Below are positions 1,811 to 62,953 of a stretch of 64,000 nucleotides of DNA, one piece after another. Position 1 is the stretch's first letter. Each line of letters begins with the position of its first letter. Made by a program: the position numbers and the translations under genes. The DNA is from Candidatus Poribacteria bacterium (lineage in GTDB: Bacteria > Poribacteria > WGA-4E > WGA-3G). Below the pieces are notes generated by a model. The model did no database searches. It saw nothing but the letters and a program-made list of their open reading frames with translations, and had not been told where the DNA came from. The DNA is taken from NCBI GenBank assembly GCA_003635255.1, contig PYJC01000090.1:7880-71879 (forward strand), given 5' to 3'.

Positions 1811-4294
1811 CTAATGATCGTGTCCGTGATCTGATGCTTCTGGATCGTCGCCGTACATTGGCTCTTTCGCCGAACGGACGACCCATTCTTCAAAGACAGA
1901 TTTGAAGGATTTTGCCCTCTCTCCGAAGTGGAGGTATTGGATGCTGTTGACTGGCACCGATATCTCTCCGTAGATTGACGAGCGTCCCTGCAGTTTTCCG
2001 TCTTTGATTTCAAGCGGTTCAAAAATGAAAATTGGATTGTCCGTCAACGTAACGCGGACCTCAGATTGAACGGCTGTCGGTTCTCGGGGACCCTCGGCTT
2101 TCAGGAAAAGCGGTTTTTGTTCATCAATTCCGTCTTTTGACTCACGGTTGTTACCGATGACTTCAACGACGCGTGACACCCGATCTATGGGAACAGTGAA
2201 TTTCCGTAATTTTGAATCAAACTGGATCGTCTGTTTATTGATACCCAAGAGTTTTCCGCGTTTCAAATCGCCATTGTTCGCCACGAGGATATGGTTCGGT
2301 GGATTATCACGACTGAAACGTGGGACGGTTAACGCCCGTTCTAATTTTGCGTCAAGCCGTCTACCTCTCGTTTCAAGGGGATCAAAAATAAGTTCAACGC
2401 CTCGCTTAAGGGCAACAGCATCGTTGACAGCAAAGTTTCCGTCAACCTTAACCAATTTCGGCTGTTCCTCTTTTTTGTCGGAAAGTATAATTATTTCGAC
2501 TGCCCCATCTTTGGTCTTGCGTGTCACAGCGTTCAAAATCCGACCGTCTTCAAGTATGACGCGATGCTTACCTTTTCCGCCTGTGATCGTAATGGGATTC
2601 CGATTTTCCGTTCTCGCCTGCACTTTTCCACCGAAGAACTCAATACCTTTCACATACATTGAAGATAGGTGCTGCATCCGAATAAAAGGTGATCGAAAAC
2701 CGATACTTGTTTCATCATACGATGAAATTTGACACGGAATGACTTCTCCATTCTTCAGATGCAACAGATGGGGAAACTGTTCTATGTCAAAAGGTTTCTG
2801 TTTTAATACACGTTTCAAAGACCGCTCTACACGCGCCTCGCGGGCGTTCGCCAACCGAACCGCTCCAGATGCTCCGACAGGTTGCCATCGAAGATCAACA
2901 GCATCTTTGCTGCCAAATAAGATATGACCGCGGAGGCTCCCAGACTCATAAAACAATTTATCATACTCTTCAACGGGTGTTTGCGTGTCGGTTGTTGACT
3001 CGAACTTAAGCACCGAAGCCCCTGCCAGCGAGCAACTTATCGGTTTGTCCGCGAACGCAGTCTGTAGCAACACGCTATCGGGGGTCAAACGTATAATCTG
3101 TCCACGCAAAACGGCACCGTCAATATATGTCAATGCTAAAGGCTGAGGTGTCGGCTTCAACGTAACATCCGGTTGAACGATGCGATCAATCTGTTGCAAA
3201 TCGATATTTTGTCGCGTCCCATCCGTATCAAGCACATAACTTTGGTTTCCGTCAACAAATAACTTACCCGGAACCAACGCTCCGTTCATCATGTGGATCC
3301 GGGATTTGGAAGCATCAATTTGTCGGTTTGTAACCTCAGTAGATTGTCGATAGATCCTTAACCGTTGCACTGTAAGATCTTGCCCGCGGTTAAAGATGTA
3401 GACCCCAGAAGCCTCGACAGTCGGTTTAACACCGTCCAATTTCAATAGCAAATTGCCATTCAAGTCAAGTACCTTCAGTATACCCGTGTTTTCATCACCC
3501 GTATTTTCATGATAGACGATCCGCAGCCGGAAATCCCGTCGGTCTGGTTGAATTGTCAACACAGGTTCAAAGAGGGTGCCTTGAACAACGACGAGTTCGT
3601 TGACCCATGTTTCCAAACGTACTGTTTCGTATAGGTTCTTACCGAGCGCGAAAACAAAGCTGGGAGGTCGCGCGGTAGATGACAACTCCAGATCAACCTC
3701 AAAATGCTTGGGCCAGCCGAGCGCGTAGAAGATGTTTGCCTTGGCGGTGCTTGTCTGCGGACGACCACCGCGATCGGGATGCCAACTCGGTTGTGCCTCT
3801 TGTGCGAACGGACCCACCTTTTCGTCTTTATCTTGCTCAGGGAGTTTCCAAGCCGTTAATTGGGAGCCGTCAAAGAGAAGATTGGAGTGCTCCCGACTCT
3901 CAAGCGTATAAATCATGTCTCGATTCACGCGAAACTGACCGTGCCGCTTGCTGGAAAAAAGAAACGTGTTATCATCTGAACTGATGAGGTCAGCCATCCA
4001 GATATCGCCGGATACCGTACCGACGCGAAAAGCCTCCGTTGCTGACACCGACTGTTTCGGAAAAACAATTGCGTCCAATACATCGGCATCAATAACAAGG
4101 GTATCCGAAAAATGTGGTGATGCCCAGTGAATTTTTCCCTCTTTCCCCGGTTCGCTTTCCAAGAGTTGACCGGGAAGGGTATCGCCATTTTTCCAGTGCA
4201 GTAGTGTTTCCGTTTCTTCAGCCTGTATTGTGGAAATCCACAACAGCATCAGTCCTACGATTGCGGCAAGTATCTTTTTTTGATTCCACTGCAT
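1811..4294 (-). CDS. large secreted protein built from repeated ~45-aa beta-type modules; function unknown
   Basis: 827-aa ORF with GGAG 7 nt upstream of the ATG and a signal-peptide-like N-terminus (ILAAIVGLMLLWISTIQA-EE). Recurrent module x-NG-x-x-[LIV]-x-G-x-L (HWKNGDTLPGQL, HMMNGALVPGKL, HLKNGEVIPCQI, VANNGDLKRGKL). No catalytic motif recognised. Confidence 0.8.
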   Translation of the reverse strand: MQWNQKKILAAIVGLMLLWISTIQAEETETLLHWKNGDTLPGQLLESEPGKEGKIHWASPHFSDTLVIDADVLDAIVFPKQSVSATEAFRVGTVSGDIWMADLISSDDNTFLFSSKRHGQFRVNRDMIYTLESREHSNLLFDGSQLTAWKLPEQDKDEKVGPFAQEAQPSWHPDRGGRPQTSTAKANIFYALGWPKHFEVDLELSSTARPPSFVFALGKNLYETVRLETWVNELVVVQGTLFEPVLTIQPDRRDFRLRIVYHENTGDENTGILKVLDLNGNLLLKLDGVKPTVEASGVYIFNRGQDLTVQRLRIYRQSTEVTNRQIDASKSRIHMMNGALVPGKLFVDGNQSYVLDTDGTRQNIDLQQIDRIVQPDVTLKPTPQPLALTYIDGAVLRGQIIRLTPDSVLLQTAFADKPISCSLAGASVLKFESTTDTQTPVEEYDKLFYESGSLRGHILFGSKDAVDLRWQPVGASGAVRLANAREARVERSLKRVLKQKPFDIEQFPHLLHLKNGEVIPCQISSYDETSIGFRSPFIRMQHLSSMYVKGIEFFGGKVQARTENRNPITITGGKGKHRVILEDGRILNAVTRKTKDGAVEIIILSDKKEEQPKLVKVDGNFAVNDAVALKRGVELIFDPLETRGRRLDAKLERALTVPRFSRDNPPNHILVANNGDLKRGKLLGINKQTIQFDSKLRKFTVPIDRVSRVVEVIGNNRESKDGIDEQKPLFLKAEGPREPTAVQSEVRVTLTDNPIFIFEPLEIKDGKLQGRSSIYGEISVPVNSIQYLHFGERAKSFKSVFEEWVVRSAKEPMYGDDPEASDHGHDH

Positions 4295-41143: not shown

Positions 41144-42025
41144 TTAATTTTTTTGTGCAAATTTCGCTGCAAATTCGATGATCGCAGCTGCGATATTGAT
41201 GCCTATGACCGCCTCCAGTTCCTCAAACCCGGGTGATGGGTTAACTTCTAAGATGACGGGTCCTTCGTTTGTTTGAAGCAGATCGACACCGGCTATTTCC
41301 AGTTCCAGTGCTGCTGCTGCTTTGATAGCCGTGTTGATATATTCTTCTGGTAAAGCGACCATCTCCCCTGTTCCACCTTTGTGGATATTTGCTCGGAATT
41401 CGCCAGGCGGTGCGCTTCTTTTCATCGCAGCAATCGCTTCACCCCCTACGACGAGGACGCGGATGTCCACGCCGCCTGCTTCTACAATAAAAGGTTGGAT
41501 TACATAATCGTGATGGAAATCACATAGCGCATCCACTGCTGACGTGAGCGATGTCGGTGTATCTAATAACATAACTCCCCTGCCGTGTGTACCGTAAAAC
41601 GGTTTTAAAATAAACGGGTAATCCCCCATTCCGGCTACGGCGTTTTCTAAAAATTCGGAGGAACCAACGGTGAGACTCGGTGGAATAGGCAAGCCGTGCT
41701 GTGCAAGGATACGCAGGGAGTGGAATTTGTGTCGTGCCACAGCGATAGGTCTTGCGCGATTGATAACAGGGGTGCCGATCCATTCAAAGTGCGCCACGAC
41801 TTCCTCGCCGTATTGTGCCGTTGTGCGGCTGAGTCGTGGTATCACGACATCAAAATTCTCTGCTGATCCGCCATAATACGTGAGGCGGTTACCAGCTCCA
41901 CCGATATGGAGATAGAAACCGAAGGGGTCTAAAATCTCTGCGGTGTGTCCTGCATTGAGGGCGGCTTCGCTGAGGCTACGCGTGGAGTGGTTTTGAGGTC
42001 CCCGAGAGAGGATACCGATTTTCAT
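41144..42025 (-). CDS. RimK-type ATP-grasp ligase (alpha-L-glutamate-ligase-like)
   Basis: 293 aa with PFILKPFYGTHGRGVMLL, DIRVLVVGGEAIAAMKR, ANIHKGG and AGVDLLQTNEGPVILEVNPSPG. Confidence 0.9.
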   Translation of the reverse strand: MKIGILSRGPQNHSTRSLSEAALNAGHTAEILDPFGFYLHIGGAGNRLTYYGGSAENFDVVIPRLSRTTAQYGEEVVAHFEWIGTPVINRARPIAVARHKFHSLRILAQHGLPIPPSLTVGSSEFLENAVAGMGDYPFILKPFYGTHGRGVMLLDTPTSLTSAVDALCDFHHDYVIQPFIVEAGGVDIRVLVVGGEAIAAMKRSAPPGEFRANIHKGGTGEMVALPEEYINTAIKAAAALELEIAGVDLLQTNEGPVILEVNPSPGFEELEAVIGINIAAAIIEFAAKFAQKN

Positions 42026-42052
42026 CTATCTTCGGGCAGGAGACCCCATGCT

Positions 42053-43081
42053 TTAGTTTGGAGAGGAATGCCCGTTCCTATAGTTAAAGTTAAGGCGTGT
42101 TAGTATTTTGAAACTATTTCGCTTCGCACCTGTTGTTAACCGTTTCCCATCAAGTTTATAGATAGCAAACAACCCTTTGGCATTTATACCCGCTAAACGT
42201 GTTAACCCGTGTTTTACATGCCTAACAAGTGTATGCTTTATGAGACCCTCTGCTAAGACTGTGCCACCATACCTTGATCGGATGCCCCCCTTTTTGGGTT
42301 GTTCTCTCTGCAAGGTTCTCCGCTGAATAGGTAAGGGGGATATACAGAACACATTTTGGTTTTCCACTATACTTTCACCACCAACAGTGTGATATGCCAG
42401 ACACCAACTATCCACACAATGGGCAGCAAAGGTATCAGAAAGTTTCTTGGAAGACTTTTTCAGTCCAAGCCTATCCCGTATTTCTTTCGTCTCCCATCCT
42501 TGAAGTGTGAACAACTTCCAACGTTTCTCTATTTCTGTGTAGAACCATTGTTTGCCGACTTCTAAAGGGCTAAAAGACTCATTCCACTTTCTCACACGCT
42601 CAAGCGTCCGGGCTCTAATATCCTCAACACATACATGTGTAATAGGATAGAGTTTTGACAACCCATCAAGGATGCGGAGTTTCCAATCCCATCTCGCACG
42701 GGTGCCAGCAGGAATACGCACTCTGTTCGCAAGTCGGTTGGTTCTGTTTTTACGGTTCGGGCACTTACGAGAACGTCTACTTCTACGCAACTCACGACGC
42801 TTTTCTACTTTCTTGCCGACATTGTGATGGGCATCTGCTTGAACATTCAAGTAAGTATGTGCTTCAGACTTCACTGTAAAGCCTTCTTTTTTACTGCCAG
42901 GGTCTACACCGACAGCAATCTCTTGAAACTCAATATCCGACGGATCAACATTTAGACGGACACAGAAGATACCATTCTTCCAAAACGGAGTCGCTTTACC
43001 TGATTCGGCCCAACGCCTTGCCCTTGAAGGCTTCGTAGGCATTAGGGGGTGTTGATTCTTATCTACTACTGGAACTAACAT
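42053..43081 (-). CDS. isrB: IsrB-type OMEGA nuclease (IscB homolog lacking the HNH domain)
   Basis: 342 aa. In order: PLMP motif (VVDKNQHPLMPTKPSRARRW), RuvC-I (VGVDPGSKKEG), Arg-rich bridge helix (KRRELRRSRRSRKCPNRKNRTNR), RuvC-II (ITHVCVEDI) and RuvC-III (AAHCVDSWC). There is no Cys/His HNH insert. AAGAGG SD. Confidence 0.8.
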   Translation of the reverse strand: MLVPVVDKNQHPLMPTKPSRARRWAESGKATPFWKNGIFCVRLNVDPSDIEFQEIAVGVDPGSKKEGFTVKSEAHTYLNVQADAHHNVGKKVEKRRELRRSRRSRKCPNRKNRTNRLANRVRIPAGTRARWDWKLRILDGLSKLYPITHVCVEDIRARTLERVRKWNESFSPLEVGKQWFYTEIEKRWKLFTLQGWETKEIRDRLGLKKSSKKLSDTFAAHCVDSWCLAYHTVGGESIVENQNVFCISPLPIQRRTLQREQPKKGGIRSRYGGTVLAEGLIKHTLVRHVKHGLTRLAGINAKGLFAIYKLDGKRLTTGAKRNSFKILTRLNFNYRNGHSSPN

Positions 43082-43290
43082 GGCGTAAACCTCTTTCGAG
43101 TATGTATTGCCCCATCCAGATCACAGTATCCAAGAGAAATCAGACTTGGGGAGCATCCGAAACATTGTGCTGGCTGCCACGCCAAGATACTGCGATATTT
43201 TACTGTAGTCAACTGTTTCGTCCTGTGCAGGGAACGTGTGGCTACGCTTTGCACAAGCCCAAATCTTCAGACTTGGGTAGTTGACCTATT
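43082..43290 (-). ncRNA. putative omega RNA (HEARO-like guide RNA scaffold) of the IsrB element
   Basis: About 200 nt directly 5' of isrB with no protein-like ORF (the only track ORF here, 43102..43284 +, is rejected as coding). Two related hairpins, CCAAG-N10-CTTGG (43130..43149) and CCCAA-N10-TTGGG (43258..43277), plus TGTGCA/TGCACA (43224..43229 / 43250..43255). The position matches where IscB/IsrB omega RNAs are encoded. The 5' boundary is unknown. Confidence 0.4.
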
Positions 43291-43516
43291 GTATTATCGT
43301 TTTAAGGGTTTTGGCAGCACACTCAGAATCGTTTTCAGCCTGTTGGATCTGTTTCGCGAGCGTTTCAACATCGGACGTTCCGACCCATTGCTGCCGTTCT
43401 TTGGTGTAATCGCCTGTACCAGCTTGAAATTGATGGATAAAACGCACCATTCCAACGGGGCCAAGTTTGTCAATTAATGCCTTAAAACCGAGTTCCAAAA
43501 TTTGCTCATCGGTCAT
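43286..43516 (-). CDS. small PIN-partner (putative antitoxin-like) protein
   Basis: ATG 43516 preceded by GGAG. MTDEQILELGFKALIDKLGPVGMVRFIHQFQAGTGDYTKERQQW aligns with the N-terminal repeat of 62465..62953 (VYKLGIEALAAKLGAAGVSRFLKQIQPLTGDYSIERHEW). Confidence 0.6.
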   Translation of the reverse strand: MTDEQILELGFKALIDKLGPVGMVRFIHQFQAGTGDYTKERQQWVGTSDVETLAKQIQQAENDSECAAKTLKTIIQ

Positions 43517-43720
43517 GATAATTGTCTCCAGTTCCAATGTATTCCTGTAACCATGTATGTGGATTTTCGACTTGCTGGTAATCGCTTGCCATTCCCGGCT
43601 CCAAAAGCGAGAAATAATCTGCATGATGGCTGCAGTTTCAGACTTAATTCTATTTTGTGTTTGATTATCATAAGGACGACTTACACAACAACTATCAAGA
43701 TAGATTTTACAAGTTTTCAT
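43517..43720 (-). pseudogene. truncated PIN-domain toxin remnant (first ~48 codons only), fused in frame to the downstream gene
   Basis: MKTCKIYLDSCCVSRPYDNQTQNRIKSETAAIMQIISRFWSREWQAITS aligns with residues 1-55 of the intact 154-aa PIN protein at 61999..62463. The rest of the domain, which carries the later acidic residues, is missing. Confidence 0.6.
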
Positions 43721-44732
43721 CTGTTTTGTACGTTTCTTGTAGAAAATCCGCTAACTCTTCAAAAGTGTCGAATATCCGGTCACATAGGTTCTCGAAGAAG
43801 ATGCTCCGCGTTCCGGTATAAACCGCATATACGGGTTTGTTGTGGCGAGTCGCGTAGTTCATTTCGCTGAGAACACCGGGCGACAATTTATCTGTCGGAT
43901 AGATGACAACCACAAAGTCGCTCTGGTGGACGAACTGGTAATCGCGTGAGATCGTCCGCGTTTTGATCTGTTCAATCACGCCATCATCCATCTCACCCAT
44001 AGTCGTAGCGGGGACAGTCCCATCGCCACCAGCGGTTACCAGTGCCATATCTTTAATCGTGAGCGGATCAAAGACGATGAATGCGCGACTCAATTTTTCG
44101 CCAATATCACGGATTTTTTCAATTTCTTTCGGGGTATCCCTGAGAAGTGTAATCGGATAACTCAGGTAAAACTTCGGTTTCGGCGAAAAGAGGAGTTCAT
44201 AAAAATTCTCAAGATCGTGTTGTCGTGCGACGGTGTAGTGCGGCTTCTCTGTGAAATGTGCGATTTGTTTCGTTAGGAATTCCTCCTCGTCTAACCAGAC
44301 ATTGAGGGTTGCATTATCCATACCTGACCATTGCGCACTTTCTTTCATCCGTCCCGATATATCGGTGATATTGTCAACGACGTTAATCAGGAGATCGGGC
44401 AGAAGGATCTCAATATCTTTGAAAGAGAATCCTTCAATCAGGCTTCCACGCCAGCGAAAACAGGCATGTAGTCCGATGACAACGTGCTCATAGGCTTCGG
44501 CACGGCGAGCGATTTCATAGAAAGCAGTGCGTCGTGCCAATGATAGAACCGCTGGATCCGAATCAAGAACCTTGTCTGTGAAATGGACACGGGATTCCGC
44601 GGCAGCACGGTGCATCACGTCACCGACATTGAAAAAGCCGATGTTCAGTTTTTGTTTCATGCAAAGGATTTTAAAATTCGCCATTAACTCTTTGCGCCCT
44701 GAACAACTGATGCCAGTACAAATAATCTTCAT
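43707..44732 (-). CDS. fusion protein: archaeal-adenylate-kinase-like P-loop domain + nucleoside-2-deoxyribosyltransferase-like domain; function unknown
   Basis: 341 aa. N-terminus: KIICTGISCSGRKE (shifted Walker A), VGDVM, IGLHACFRWRGSLIEGF..LLPDLLINVV parallel the AdkA-type kinase layout. C-terminus: KFYLSYPIT ... SDFVVVIYPTDKLSPGVLSEMNYATRHNKPVYAV matches the NDT/Rcl-like Rossmann pattern with a conserved Glu. Confidence 0.7.
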   Translation of the reverse strand: MKIICTGISCSGRKELMANFKILCMKQKLNIGFFNVGDVMHRAAAESRVHFTDKVLDSDPAVLSLARRTAFYEIARRAEAYEHVVIGLHACFRWRGSLIEGFSFKDIEILLPDLLINVVDNITDISGRMKESAQWSGMDNATLNVWLDEEEFLTKQIAHFTEKPHYTVARQHDLENFYELLFSPKPKFYLSYPITLLRDTPKEIEKIRDIGEKLSRAFIVFDPLTIKDMALVTAGGDGTVPATTMGEMDDGVIEQIKTRTISRDYQFVHQSDFVVVIYPTDKLSPGVLSEMNYATRHNKPVYAVYTGTRSIFFENLCDRIFDTFEELADFLQETYKTDENL

Positions 44733-61998: not shown

Positions 61999-62463
61999 GT
62001 GAAAACACCTTTTTACAACTGGAAAATTTACCTTGATACGTGTTGTTTGAGCCGCCCTTTTAATGATCAAACACCAATTAGGATTCGTCAGGAAACGGAA
62101 GCCATTGAAATAATCCTCAAAAATTTCAGTACAGGCGATTGGTCCTGGATTGTTAGTGGAGCTCTAACGCTTGAAGTTGACAACAACCCAGAGGTGAGTC
62201 AACGCAATGAAATGAAATTTCAGATGGCTGATGCATATATAGATGTCTCGATCAGTGAGATAGAAATAGCAAGGGGTAGAGATCTTGAAAAGTTAGGGTT
62301 CAAGCGATTAGATGCTTTGCACCTTGCGTGTGCCGAAAAAGGCAATGCGGATGTTTTCCTCACAACAGATGACAGGCTCCTTAGAAGGGCAAAAAGGCTC
62401 AGTTCCAAATTGCGTGTCCGCGTCGAAAATCCTTATGAATGGCTACGGTCAGGAGATAATTAA
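61999..62463 (+). CDS. PIN-domain ribonuclease (toxin)
   Basis: 154 aa with the first acidic residue in KIYLDTCCL and the later DALHLACAE ... FLTTDDRLL. Confidence 0.85.
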   Translation: MKTPFYNWKIYLDTCCLSRPFNDQTPIRIRQETEAIEIILKNFSTGDWSWIVSGALTLEVDNNPEVSQRNEMKFQMADAYIDVSISEIEIARGRDLEKLGFKRLDALHLACAEKGNADVFLTTDDRLLRRAKRLSSKLRVRVENPYEWLRSGDN

Positions 62464-62464
62464 A

Positions 62465-62953
62465 ATGGACGTTCTAAAAATGGCAGATAATGAGGTTTAC
62501 AAACTGGGAATCGAGGCACTTGCAGCTAAACTTGGTGCTGCTGGCGTATCACGGTTCCTTAAGCAGATTCAACCACTCACTGGTGATTACTCGATTGAAC
62601 GGCATGAATGGCTGGATAATTTACCAGATATGGACACTCTCATTGAACAAATTCGCCAAGCAGGTAAGGACGCAGAAGCCGAACGGAACCGTATATCCAA
62701 ACTGAAAGCTTACGTTTCTAAAAATGGGAAACCACTGGCAGCACGTATCCAGAAAATCTCAGATGAAGACCTTCATAAACTCGGACTTGAAGCCCTCGTG
62801 GATAAACTGAGTATTGCTGGTATGCCGCGGTTCATCCGACTCTGTGCACCGGGGACGGGCCCTTACGCAATCGACAAGCACAAACCGCCCAAACTGGATT
62901 CAGTACCGACCTCCCAAAAGGTTAAAAATGAACACTCAGTAGATAAAAAATGA
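62465..62953 (+). CDS. PIN-partner protein with two tandem ~60-aa repeats (putative antitoxin)
   Basis: The ORF-track start 62312 lies inside the PIN gene. ATG 62465 sits 1 nt after the PIN stop with AGGAG 9 nt upstream. Repeats: VYKLGIEALAAKLGAAGVSRFLKQIQPLTGDYSIERHEW / LHKLGLEALVDKLSIAGMPRFIRLCAPGTGPYAIDKHK. Confidence 0.7.
   Translation: MDVLKMADNEVYKLGIEALAAKLGAAGVSRFLKQIQPLTGDYSIERHEWLDNLPDMDTLIEQIRQAGKDAEAERNRISKLKAYVSKNGKPLAARIQKISDEDLHKLGLEALVDKLSIAGMPRFIRLCAPGTGPYAIDKHKPPKLDSVPTSQKVKNEHSVDKK

Follow-up and report, generated by a model that had tools for sequence, protein, structure and literature searches.

A 64,000-nucleotide stretch of a Candidatus Poribacteria contig (GenBank assembly GCA_003635255.1, contig PYJC01000090.1, positions 7,880 to 71,879; hereafter the window, numbered from its first letter) holds what is, with high confidence, one complete non-autonomous element of the ISC1 type (IS200/IS605 superfamily), consisting of an omega RNA gene and an isrB gene, i.e. 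a gene for the HNH-less relative of the RNA-guided nuclease IscB and a presumed small RNA-guided nickase. Taken individually the locus is ordinary, as IsrB and ISC1 elements and HEARO or omega RNAs are known from work dating back to 2009-2021 and a structure is available. It does, however, belong to a large and diverse IsrB family under selection, which is documented here for Poribacteria, uncultivated sponge-associated bacteria for which our literature search found no paper linking them with IscB, IsrB or TnpB. The copies of this family are frequently placed on host start codons, a family-level pattern that merits follow-up, modest as the single locus is in itself. Coordinates of all features are collected in Table 1.

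Boundaries, ends and target site of the element

The boundaries were obtained from a MAFFT alignment of the window with 78 Poribacteria copies, flanks included. Conservation starts at 43285 (the G of GTCAAC, 100%) and ends at 42022 (...GAAGATAG ATGA), both limits being sharp to a single base with the flanks at background identity. The last four bases are ATGA in 64 and GTGA in seven of the 79 copies (71 together), and since the two forms alternate among near-identical copies within a subfamily, these four bases appear to be host sequence. At the other flank, the 78-copy alignment contained no conserved or repeated motif. The sharp boundaries, together with the ATGA that begins element-free rimK genes (see below), therefore place the element proper at 42026..43285, inserted directly 5' of a native ATGA. 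An earlier reading of this DNA, made from the letters alone and referred to here as the sequence-only reading, had delimited it as 42026..43300, which nearly coincides with the true element and takes in 15 nt of guide-encoding flank. From 77 insertion sites in the family, a target-adjacent motif (TAM) of the form (A/G)TGA would be expected.

On the plus strand the layout is 5'-TCAT|left end...right end-3', in agreement with the usual rule for the IS200/IS605 superfamily, i.e. insertion 3' of the target. Here the omega RNA lies on the right-end side, which agrees with the statement of Meers et al. (preprint) that the right end delimits the RNA found upstream of iscB. The outer stem of the left end occurs in several compensated forms (CGGGCA/TGCCCG, CGGTGT/ACACCG, CGGGCT/AGCCCG and CGGATT/AATCCG). 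An inner, imperfect hairpin at the same end covaries as well and resembles the right-end hairpin; its loop contains TAA, the stop codon of isrB, so that the last isrB codons are constrained by the transposase-binding hairpin. As single-sequence DNA folds of the two ends are not significant alone (z = -0.6 to -1.1), the support for the hairpins comes from covariation, which shows predicted subterminal hairpins of the Y1-transposase-bound kind at both ends. The inner left-end hairpin (42041..42064) and the right-end hairpin (43258..43277), read on the same (minus) strand, have a common consensus, CCCCAA(N2)-TAAA-(N2)TGGGG.

The assignment to ISC1 follows from the combination of subterminal imperfect hairpins at both ends, no terminal inverted repeats, and insertion beside a specific 4-nt target (N|ATGA) without target-site duplication. 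Published ISC1 elements have the termini 5'-GTCA...CG|ATGA-3', use the target N|ATGA and create no duplication (Kapitonov et al. 2016, PMC4810608). ISC1-1_MA of Microcystis aeruginosa (PMC4810608) is likewise non-autonomous and encodes only an HNH-less IscB1 (IsrB). With it and other ISC elements of N|ATGA specificity the window copy has in common the termini 5'-GTCA...G|ATGA-3', the insertion directly 5' of ATGA and the hairpins at both ends. ISC1-1_MA differs in belonging to another phylum and in being known from 4 copies at 97% DNA identity, compared with 358 relatives at 75-85% protein identity here.

One isrB, one omega RNA and one left end are present within the window. A tblastn search with the IS608 TnpA (identical to 2A6M), which covered the window and the sequence within 3 kb of 80 related copies and did not extend to the rest of the source genome, found no Y1 TnpA (best E=3.4). 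The copy is therefore non-autonomous, as the sequence-only reading had held from the lack of a Y1 transposase.

The IsrB protein

The open reading frame (ORF) at 42053..43081 had been correctly recognized as a gene for a protein of 342 amino acids (aa), with no strand given; it is on the minus strand. Its only Pfam match is RRXRR (PF14239, E=1.8e-32, residues 3-156), and none of the HNH families in Pfam matches at E<=1. When all PDB sequences were searched with phmmer, the best match was 8DMB, the IsrB of Desulfovirgula thermocuniculi (hereafter DtIsrB), with E=2.8e-32 over residues 3-335, i.e. through the C-terminal TAM-interacting domain. The domains come in the order PLMP, RuvC-I, bridge helix, RuvC-II, a short linker replacing HNH, RuvC-III and TAM-interacting domain, which bears out the motif succession previously read from the ORF. 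PLMP itself is at residues 12-15 (HPLMPT at 11-16), aligned to the PLMP strand of 8DMB, and the Arg-rich bridge helix, also aligned to 8DMB, spans approximately residues 94-116. The stretch from E153 to H221 comprises 67 residues and not a single Cys, in keeping with the earlier statement that an HNH insert is lacking. Loss of the RuvC D-E-H-D residues had been named as something that would speak against IsrB; D60, E153, H221 and D224 are instead invariant across the window protein and 68 homologues. An identical protein is on record as a hypothetical protein of a Candidatus Poribacteria metagenome-assembled genome.

An HNH-bearing IscB, or another RuvC nuclease such as TnpB, Cas12f or a RuvC resolvase, has to be considered because the N-terminal half does match IscB models, e.g. 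NCBIfam guided_IscB with E=9e-26 and IscB structures. The IscB chains in the PDB, however, align to the PLMP/RuvC-I/bridge-helix part only, with matches ending at about residue 156, and the guided_IscB match, limited to positions 3-157 of the 314 in the profile, reaches 90.7 bits where the cutoff is 175. Both the profile search and the structure prediction that the sequence-only reading had proposed as checks favored IsrB. For the latter, the window protein was aligned with 68 close homologues, and the resulting AlphaFold2 model was used for Foldseek ranking only; this low-confidence model has 8dmb_P as its top match (E=7.6e-17, template modeling (TM) score 0.56-0.58), ahead of IscB structures, and reaches only E>=0.015 and TM scores <=0.29 with TnpB, Cas12f and RuvC resolvase structures. 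Because the match to 8DMB is full-length, the IscB matches are half-length, HNH is lacking and guided_IscB stays under its cutoff, the protein is by its sequence an IsrB and not an IscB, as had been proposed. The probability of the other nucleases is negligible.

The protein and DtIsrB (8DMB, PMC9581776) are alike in having PLMP, a split RuvC, a bridge helix and a TAM-interacting domain without HNH in about 340-350 aa, and in the upstream position of an omega RNA with a 5' guide. DtIsrB recognizes the TAM NTGA, with which ATGA and GTGA are compatible, and nicks 8-11 nt upstream (Hirano et al. 2022, PMC9581776). Its TAM-reading residue R323 aligns to R314, nearly invariant here (>=90% conserved among homologues). 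The two differ in sequence (about 27% identity), in the scaffold upstream of the ATG (262 nt in DtIsrB and about 200 nt here), in one TAM-reading residue (see below) and in their hosts, i.e. a thermophile in the case of DtIsrB and here a presumably mesophilic marine sponge symbiont lineage. The compact 342-aa protein with its scaffold of about 200 nt might for this reason be of interest to those seeking small nickases for moderate temperatures. IscB (OgeuIscB, 7XHT/7UTN) has a homologous PLMP/RuvC/bridge-helix core and an upstream omega RNA and belongs to the same transposon superfamily, but it possesses an HNH domain and cuts both strands. TnpB (IS605/IS607) has a transposon-end-derived guide RNA, a target site that doubles as TAM and restorative homing in common with the present system. 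It is set apart by an unrelated guide RNA at the 3' end of its gene, a 5' TAM and a different architecture, as seen from the Foldseek values.

The omega RNA and its presumed guide

The sequence-only reading contained no omega RNA, and one is predicted between the right end of the element and isrB. The Rfam model HEARO (RF02033), which represents the omega RNA of IscB and IsrB, aligns there over its full length (1-211) with 32.6 bits (E=5.5e-4), beginning at the first base of the element and stopping 4 nt short of the isrB ATG. A sub-threshold match in the identical register was obtained in four out of nine related loci, with 29.6-36.4 bits. In position and orientation relative to the ORF, in an alignment that starts at the transposon end, and in the outer helix and the first and central hairpins, the predicted RNA agrees with HEARO. 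Because several helices of the model go unmatched, it is, as judged from sequence and covariation, a divergent HEARO subgroup.

Covariation was analyzed in 64 distinct sequences with a 52-pair structure that comprises the outer helix, stem-loops 1 and 2 (SL1 and SL2), a long-range helix with two inner hairpins, a CCCC/GGGG pseudoknot and the terminal hairpin. The pairs of this structure are 84.6% paired, compared with 32-45% when the partners are slid by 1-3 columns, and 33 of the 52 show double-sided changes; none of 500 shuffles matched the observed values. RNAalifold recovered 24 pairs, 17 of them compensated, and missed the outer helix and the pseudoknot, both of which were drawn in by hand. 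A further hand-drawn helix, helix 3 (columns 34-39 with 69-74), was rejected as unsupported, being mis-registered in most sequences and only 45.8% paired. The helix of SL1 is 93.9% paired with five of its seven pairs compensated, and the SL1/right-end region is required for transposon activity (Hirano et al. 2022, PMC9581776). The terminal hairpin occurs as CTC/GAG, CCC/GGG and similar variants across the alignment, closed by GAAA or TTCG loops.

In IscB and IsrB systems, the omega RNA is bounded by one transposon end, and the flank next to that end serves as the guide (Meers et al. preprint; PMC9581776). Conservation among the 78 copies ends abruptly upstream of 43285, and the host flank beyond this point is the presumed guide, its length of 20 nt being assumed by analogy with DtIsrB. 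No second match to it was found within the 64-kb window.

A family under selection in Poribacteria

A total of 3465 proteins match at E<=1e-3, and the best 120 of these are all about 340 aa long and 75-85% identical. A scan with one genome per species gave 358 relatives, the best 80 of which were kept as loci L001-L080. These 80 are all found in Poribacteria, with up to 11 of them on a single chromosome (OZ244616.1). The relatives settled the element ends, thereby answering one half of an earlier proposal to look for further copies and empty sites; the empty-site half gave element-free rimK orthologues with a different upstream context (see below). The closest relative is 85% identical in protein, and the ORF has at least 335 codons in 76 of 79 copies. 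Between the window copy and its relatives, the median ratio of non-synonymous to synonymous substitutions (dN/dS) is 0.11 with dS of about 1.6, and the copies are therefore old and constrained, rather than recent duplicates or decaying pseudogenes.

Some copies deviate from this picture. In L010, L014 and L021 (locus position 3001) and in two further loci, the aligned isrB start reads ATC with the rest of the ORF open, and these may be pseudogenes or use another start. In L006 and L020 the first approximately 100 nt, i.e. the 5' omega RNA region, are unrelated to the family consensus, and L006 ends in ATGCAG without a terminal ATGA; both may be rearranged or chimeric copies. L030 and L031, as well as L070 and L072, have identical flanks on both sides in different species-representative genomes, which suggests either that the genomes are very close or that the insertions were passed on vertically while species-level divergence took place.

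Alternatively, the window copy could be a fixed, immobile relic that no longer transposes for want of a matching TnpA in the genome; its gene would then persist passively, or because rimK expression would suffer from its loss. This would account for the missing TnpA, in the window as well as beside all 80 copies, for the old insertion implied by the 85% identity of the closest relative and a dS of about 1.6, and for the sites common to different species-level genomes (L030/L031 and L070/L072). Yet the ORF and its catalytic residues have stayed intact, as have the helices of the omega RNA and the hairpins at both ends, and all of these are constrained, with dN/dS of about 0.1 and compensatory changes in the RNA as well as in the hairpins. 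Many different sites are occupied inside a single genome, and most IscB/IsrB elements are non-autonomous and mobilized in trans (Meers et al. preprint; PMC4810608). We therefore regard the relic explanation as unlikely, albeit one that deserves real weight.

Strong purifying selection, and the location of roughly half of the copies, between the ribosome-binding region of a host gene and its start codon, would also suit an IsrB that has been domesticated as an RNA-guided regulator or defense factor of the host, comparable to the TnpB-derived TldR repressors, instead of being a selfish passenger. TldR-like proteins are nuclease-dead, however, and the RuvC tetrad is intact here; moreover, conservation and covariation extend to the transposon ends, single genomes contain many copies beside unrelated genes, and, just as in mobile copies, the guide is no more than the neighboring flank. 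Domestication is thus very improbable. IscB, TnpB/Cas12f and a nuclease-dead regulator were accordingly rejected as identities of the protein, on the grounds of the lacking HNH, the weak fold matches, and the invariant tetrad and conserved ends, respectively.

Proposed mechanism

Starting from the anatomy of the ISC1-type element described above, what is established about the biology of the family allows a sequence of events to be proposed. The single-stranded element would have been inserted 3' of 5'-TCAT-3' on the plus strand, i.e. 5' of ATGA as seen on the gene strand, by a Y1 TnpA whose gene lies elsewhere. Transcription continuing from the host genes upstream would then produce an RNA with a flank-derived guide of about 16-20 nt and the scaffold of about 200 nt, and the same transcript would also encode IsrB. 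The complex of IsrB and omega RNA would recognize the element-free joint by a guide match followed by the ATGA TAM, and would place a nick in the non-target strand, a few bases 5' of the TAM, whereupon recombination with an element-bearing copy could restore the element (restorative homing). The rimK gene, cut off from its earlier upstream sequence, would probably be translated by ribosomes terminating at the isrB stop codon 27 nt upstream.

Several points weigh against this account of the locus. Rfam sets its gathering score for HEARO at 83, far above the 32.6 bits obtained here (30-36 bits in the family), and a scan of the window with Rfam gave no match at gathering threshold for any model. 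The confidence of the AlphaFold model is low (predicted local distance difference test, pLDDT, of 58.5). Q326 of DtIsrB, which reads the fourth TAM base, aligns to T317, so that this contact is not conserved and TAM reading may differ in detail from DtIsrB; A is nonetheless kept at TAM position 4 in 97% of the copies. The inference of nicking, guide length, TAM and homing comes entirely from homology to DtIsrB, at about 27% identity. As to present-day mobility, the cognate TnpA was not located in the window or at the 80 loci, and as to co-transcription, a scan for promoters and terminators gave counts no higher than in shuffled sequences. Finally, the upstream context of the element-free rimK orthologues differs from that of the window in all five cases, which makes the exact pre-insertion joint a reconstruction.

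Placement on host start codons

In the window, the target ATGA consists of the rimK start codon and the following base. The sequence-only reading had the element wedged between a decayed toxin locus and an operon start; it does adjoin rimK, but its left end abuts the rimK start codon itself, which thus serves as target site and expected TAM. This position is typical of the family. Of 79 copies, 46 have a terminal ATG or GTG from which an ORF of at least 60 codons runs, and out of 77 distinct insertion sites, 41 are situated exactly on a host start codon (ATGA/GTGA) that opens at least 100 codons. Among control (A/G)TGA sites in the same flanks, 4.7% of 6136 look start-like. When the start-like sites are reconstructed empty, the in-frame open stretch upstream has a median of about 12 codons and is <=46 codons in all but one, as expected for true starts. 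Pfam domains begin near the N-terminus in 8 of 10 tested start-site ORFs, and the presumed guide flank contains a Shine-Dalgarno-like motif in 61% of the start-like sites, compared with 22% of the others. The remaining sites are located in apparently non-coding DNA (27) or inside a long open frame (9).

Insertions that disrupt genes are lost by purifying selection, which accounts for part of this pattern. As a hypothesis, the rest may stem from the need for transcription from outside combined with a tolerable effect on the host gene, the isrB stop being 24-32 nt upstream of it. One could go further and suppose that (A/G)TGA acts as an address meaning "start codon plus A", by which the element nests between the ribosome-binding region and the start codon of a host gene. 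The ribosome-binding region would thereby become the guide, host transcription would supply guide, omega RNA and isrB message, and ribosomes finishing at the isrB stop would translate the host gene. We put this forward tentatively, as a possibility that is worth pursuing even though we incline against it.

If the placement on start codons is selected and not merely tolerated, it would constitute a previously undescribed safe-harbor strategy for OMEGA elements, and it would explain how hundreds of copies persist in operons at low cost. The placement itself ties together target choice, guide content, element expression and host gene expression, a connection that is directly testable. A literature search, in which the 2009 description of HEARO (where ATGA/GTGA beside such elements was reportedly noted already) was not covered, found no title or abstract addressing insertion of IscB elements at start codons, and start codons are not mentioned by Kapitonov et al. 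2016 (PMC4810608).

Host genes around the element

The neighboring genes are all on the minus strand. Directly downstream of the element is the gene for a rimK-family alpha-L-glutamate ligase, whose ATG at 42025 is 27 nt from the isrB stop codon (42053-42055), the same spacing as had been reported before. In the Pfam alignment, position 1 of the Rimk_N profile falls on residue 1 of RimK, and the TIGRFAM alignment likewise runs from residue 1; 42025 is therefore the true rimK start. An exact-sequence look-up of the RimK protein returned no record. Five metagenomic rimK orthologues without IsrB upstream were found, four at 82-83% identity and the fifth at 61%. All of them begin with ATGAAA or ATGAAG, and three of the four at 82-83% are followed by the same glycosyltransferase as in the window. 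Co-transcription of the element with the host genes is plausible.

On the other side, the TAG stop codon of the upstream gene abuts the element, and the pre-insertion joint is accordingly reconstructed as ...CAATAG|ATGAAA... The upstream ORF of 144 aa has no Pfam match. A tblastn search with this ORF revealed a paralogous locus at 62023-62884, where an intact PIN-like toxin and its partner are encoded. Residues 5-49 of the ORF match the N-terminus of the intact PIN-like protein (154 aa), and residues 49-133 match the protein encoded just after it. With approximately the first 49 aa of the toxin fused in frame to the partner, an internal toxin deletion is implied, which substantiates the decayed toxin locus of the sequence-only reading.

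Table 1. Features of the element and its surroundings, in window coordinates
Feature	Position	Strand	Basis or remark
Whole mobile element, 1260 bp without target site	42026..43285	-	conservation boundaries
Target site ATGA	42022..42025	-	host target N|ATGA, expected IsrB TAM, rimK start codon and next base
Left-end subterminal hairpin	42033..42074		outer stem 42074-42069 with 42038-42033
Right-end subterminal hairpin CCCAAGTC-TGAA-GATTTGGG	43258..43277		DNA of omega RNA SL1
isrB coding sequence	42053..43081	-	342 aa and stop
D60 codon (RuvC-I catalytic Asp, VGVDPGS)	42902..42904	-	aligned to VDPG motif of 8DMB; invariant
E153 codon (RuvC-II catalytic Glu, VCVEDI)	42623..42625	-	8DMB and homologue alignments
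H221-D224 codons (RuvC-III His and Asp, AAHCVDSW)	42410..42421	-	8DMB and homologue alignments
T317 codon	42131..42133	-	within conserved GKRLTT motif
Predicted omega RNA scaffold, HEARO-like	43085..43285	-	RF02033 match and covariation
Omega RNA P1	43285-43279 with 43214-43208		
Omega RNA SL1	43277-43258	-	same sequence as right-end transposon hairpin
Terminal hairpin ACTC-GAAA-GAGG	43090..43101	-	3' arm is the isrB Shine-Dalgarno
Presumed guide, 5'-TTAAAACGATAATACAATAG-3'	43286..43305	-	host flank; last codons and TAG stop of upstream gene
rimK-family alpha-L-glutamate ligase	41144..42025	-	directly downstream; Pfam Rimk_N, TIGR00768 223 bits
Upstream ORF, 144 aa	43286..43720	-	decayed PIN-like toxin fused in frame to partner protein
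Likely real upstream gene	43286..43516	-	TAG stop abuts element
Intact PIN-like toxin and partner	61999..62953	+	toxin 154 aa at 61999..62463

The intact partner gene contains two tandem modules of about 60 aa each, and the partner in the upstream fusion ORF has a single module. Further upstream, the ORF at 43707..44732 (minus strand) encodes a protein of 341 aa with an AAA_17/adenylate-kinase-like N-terminus and a nucleoside 2-deoxyribosyltransferase-like C-terminus; 14 nt at the 3' end of this ORF are shared with the start of the decayed toxin ORF.

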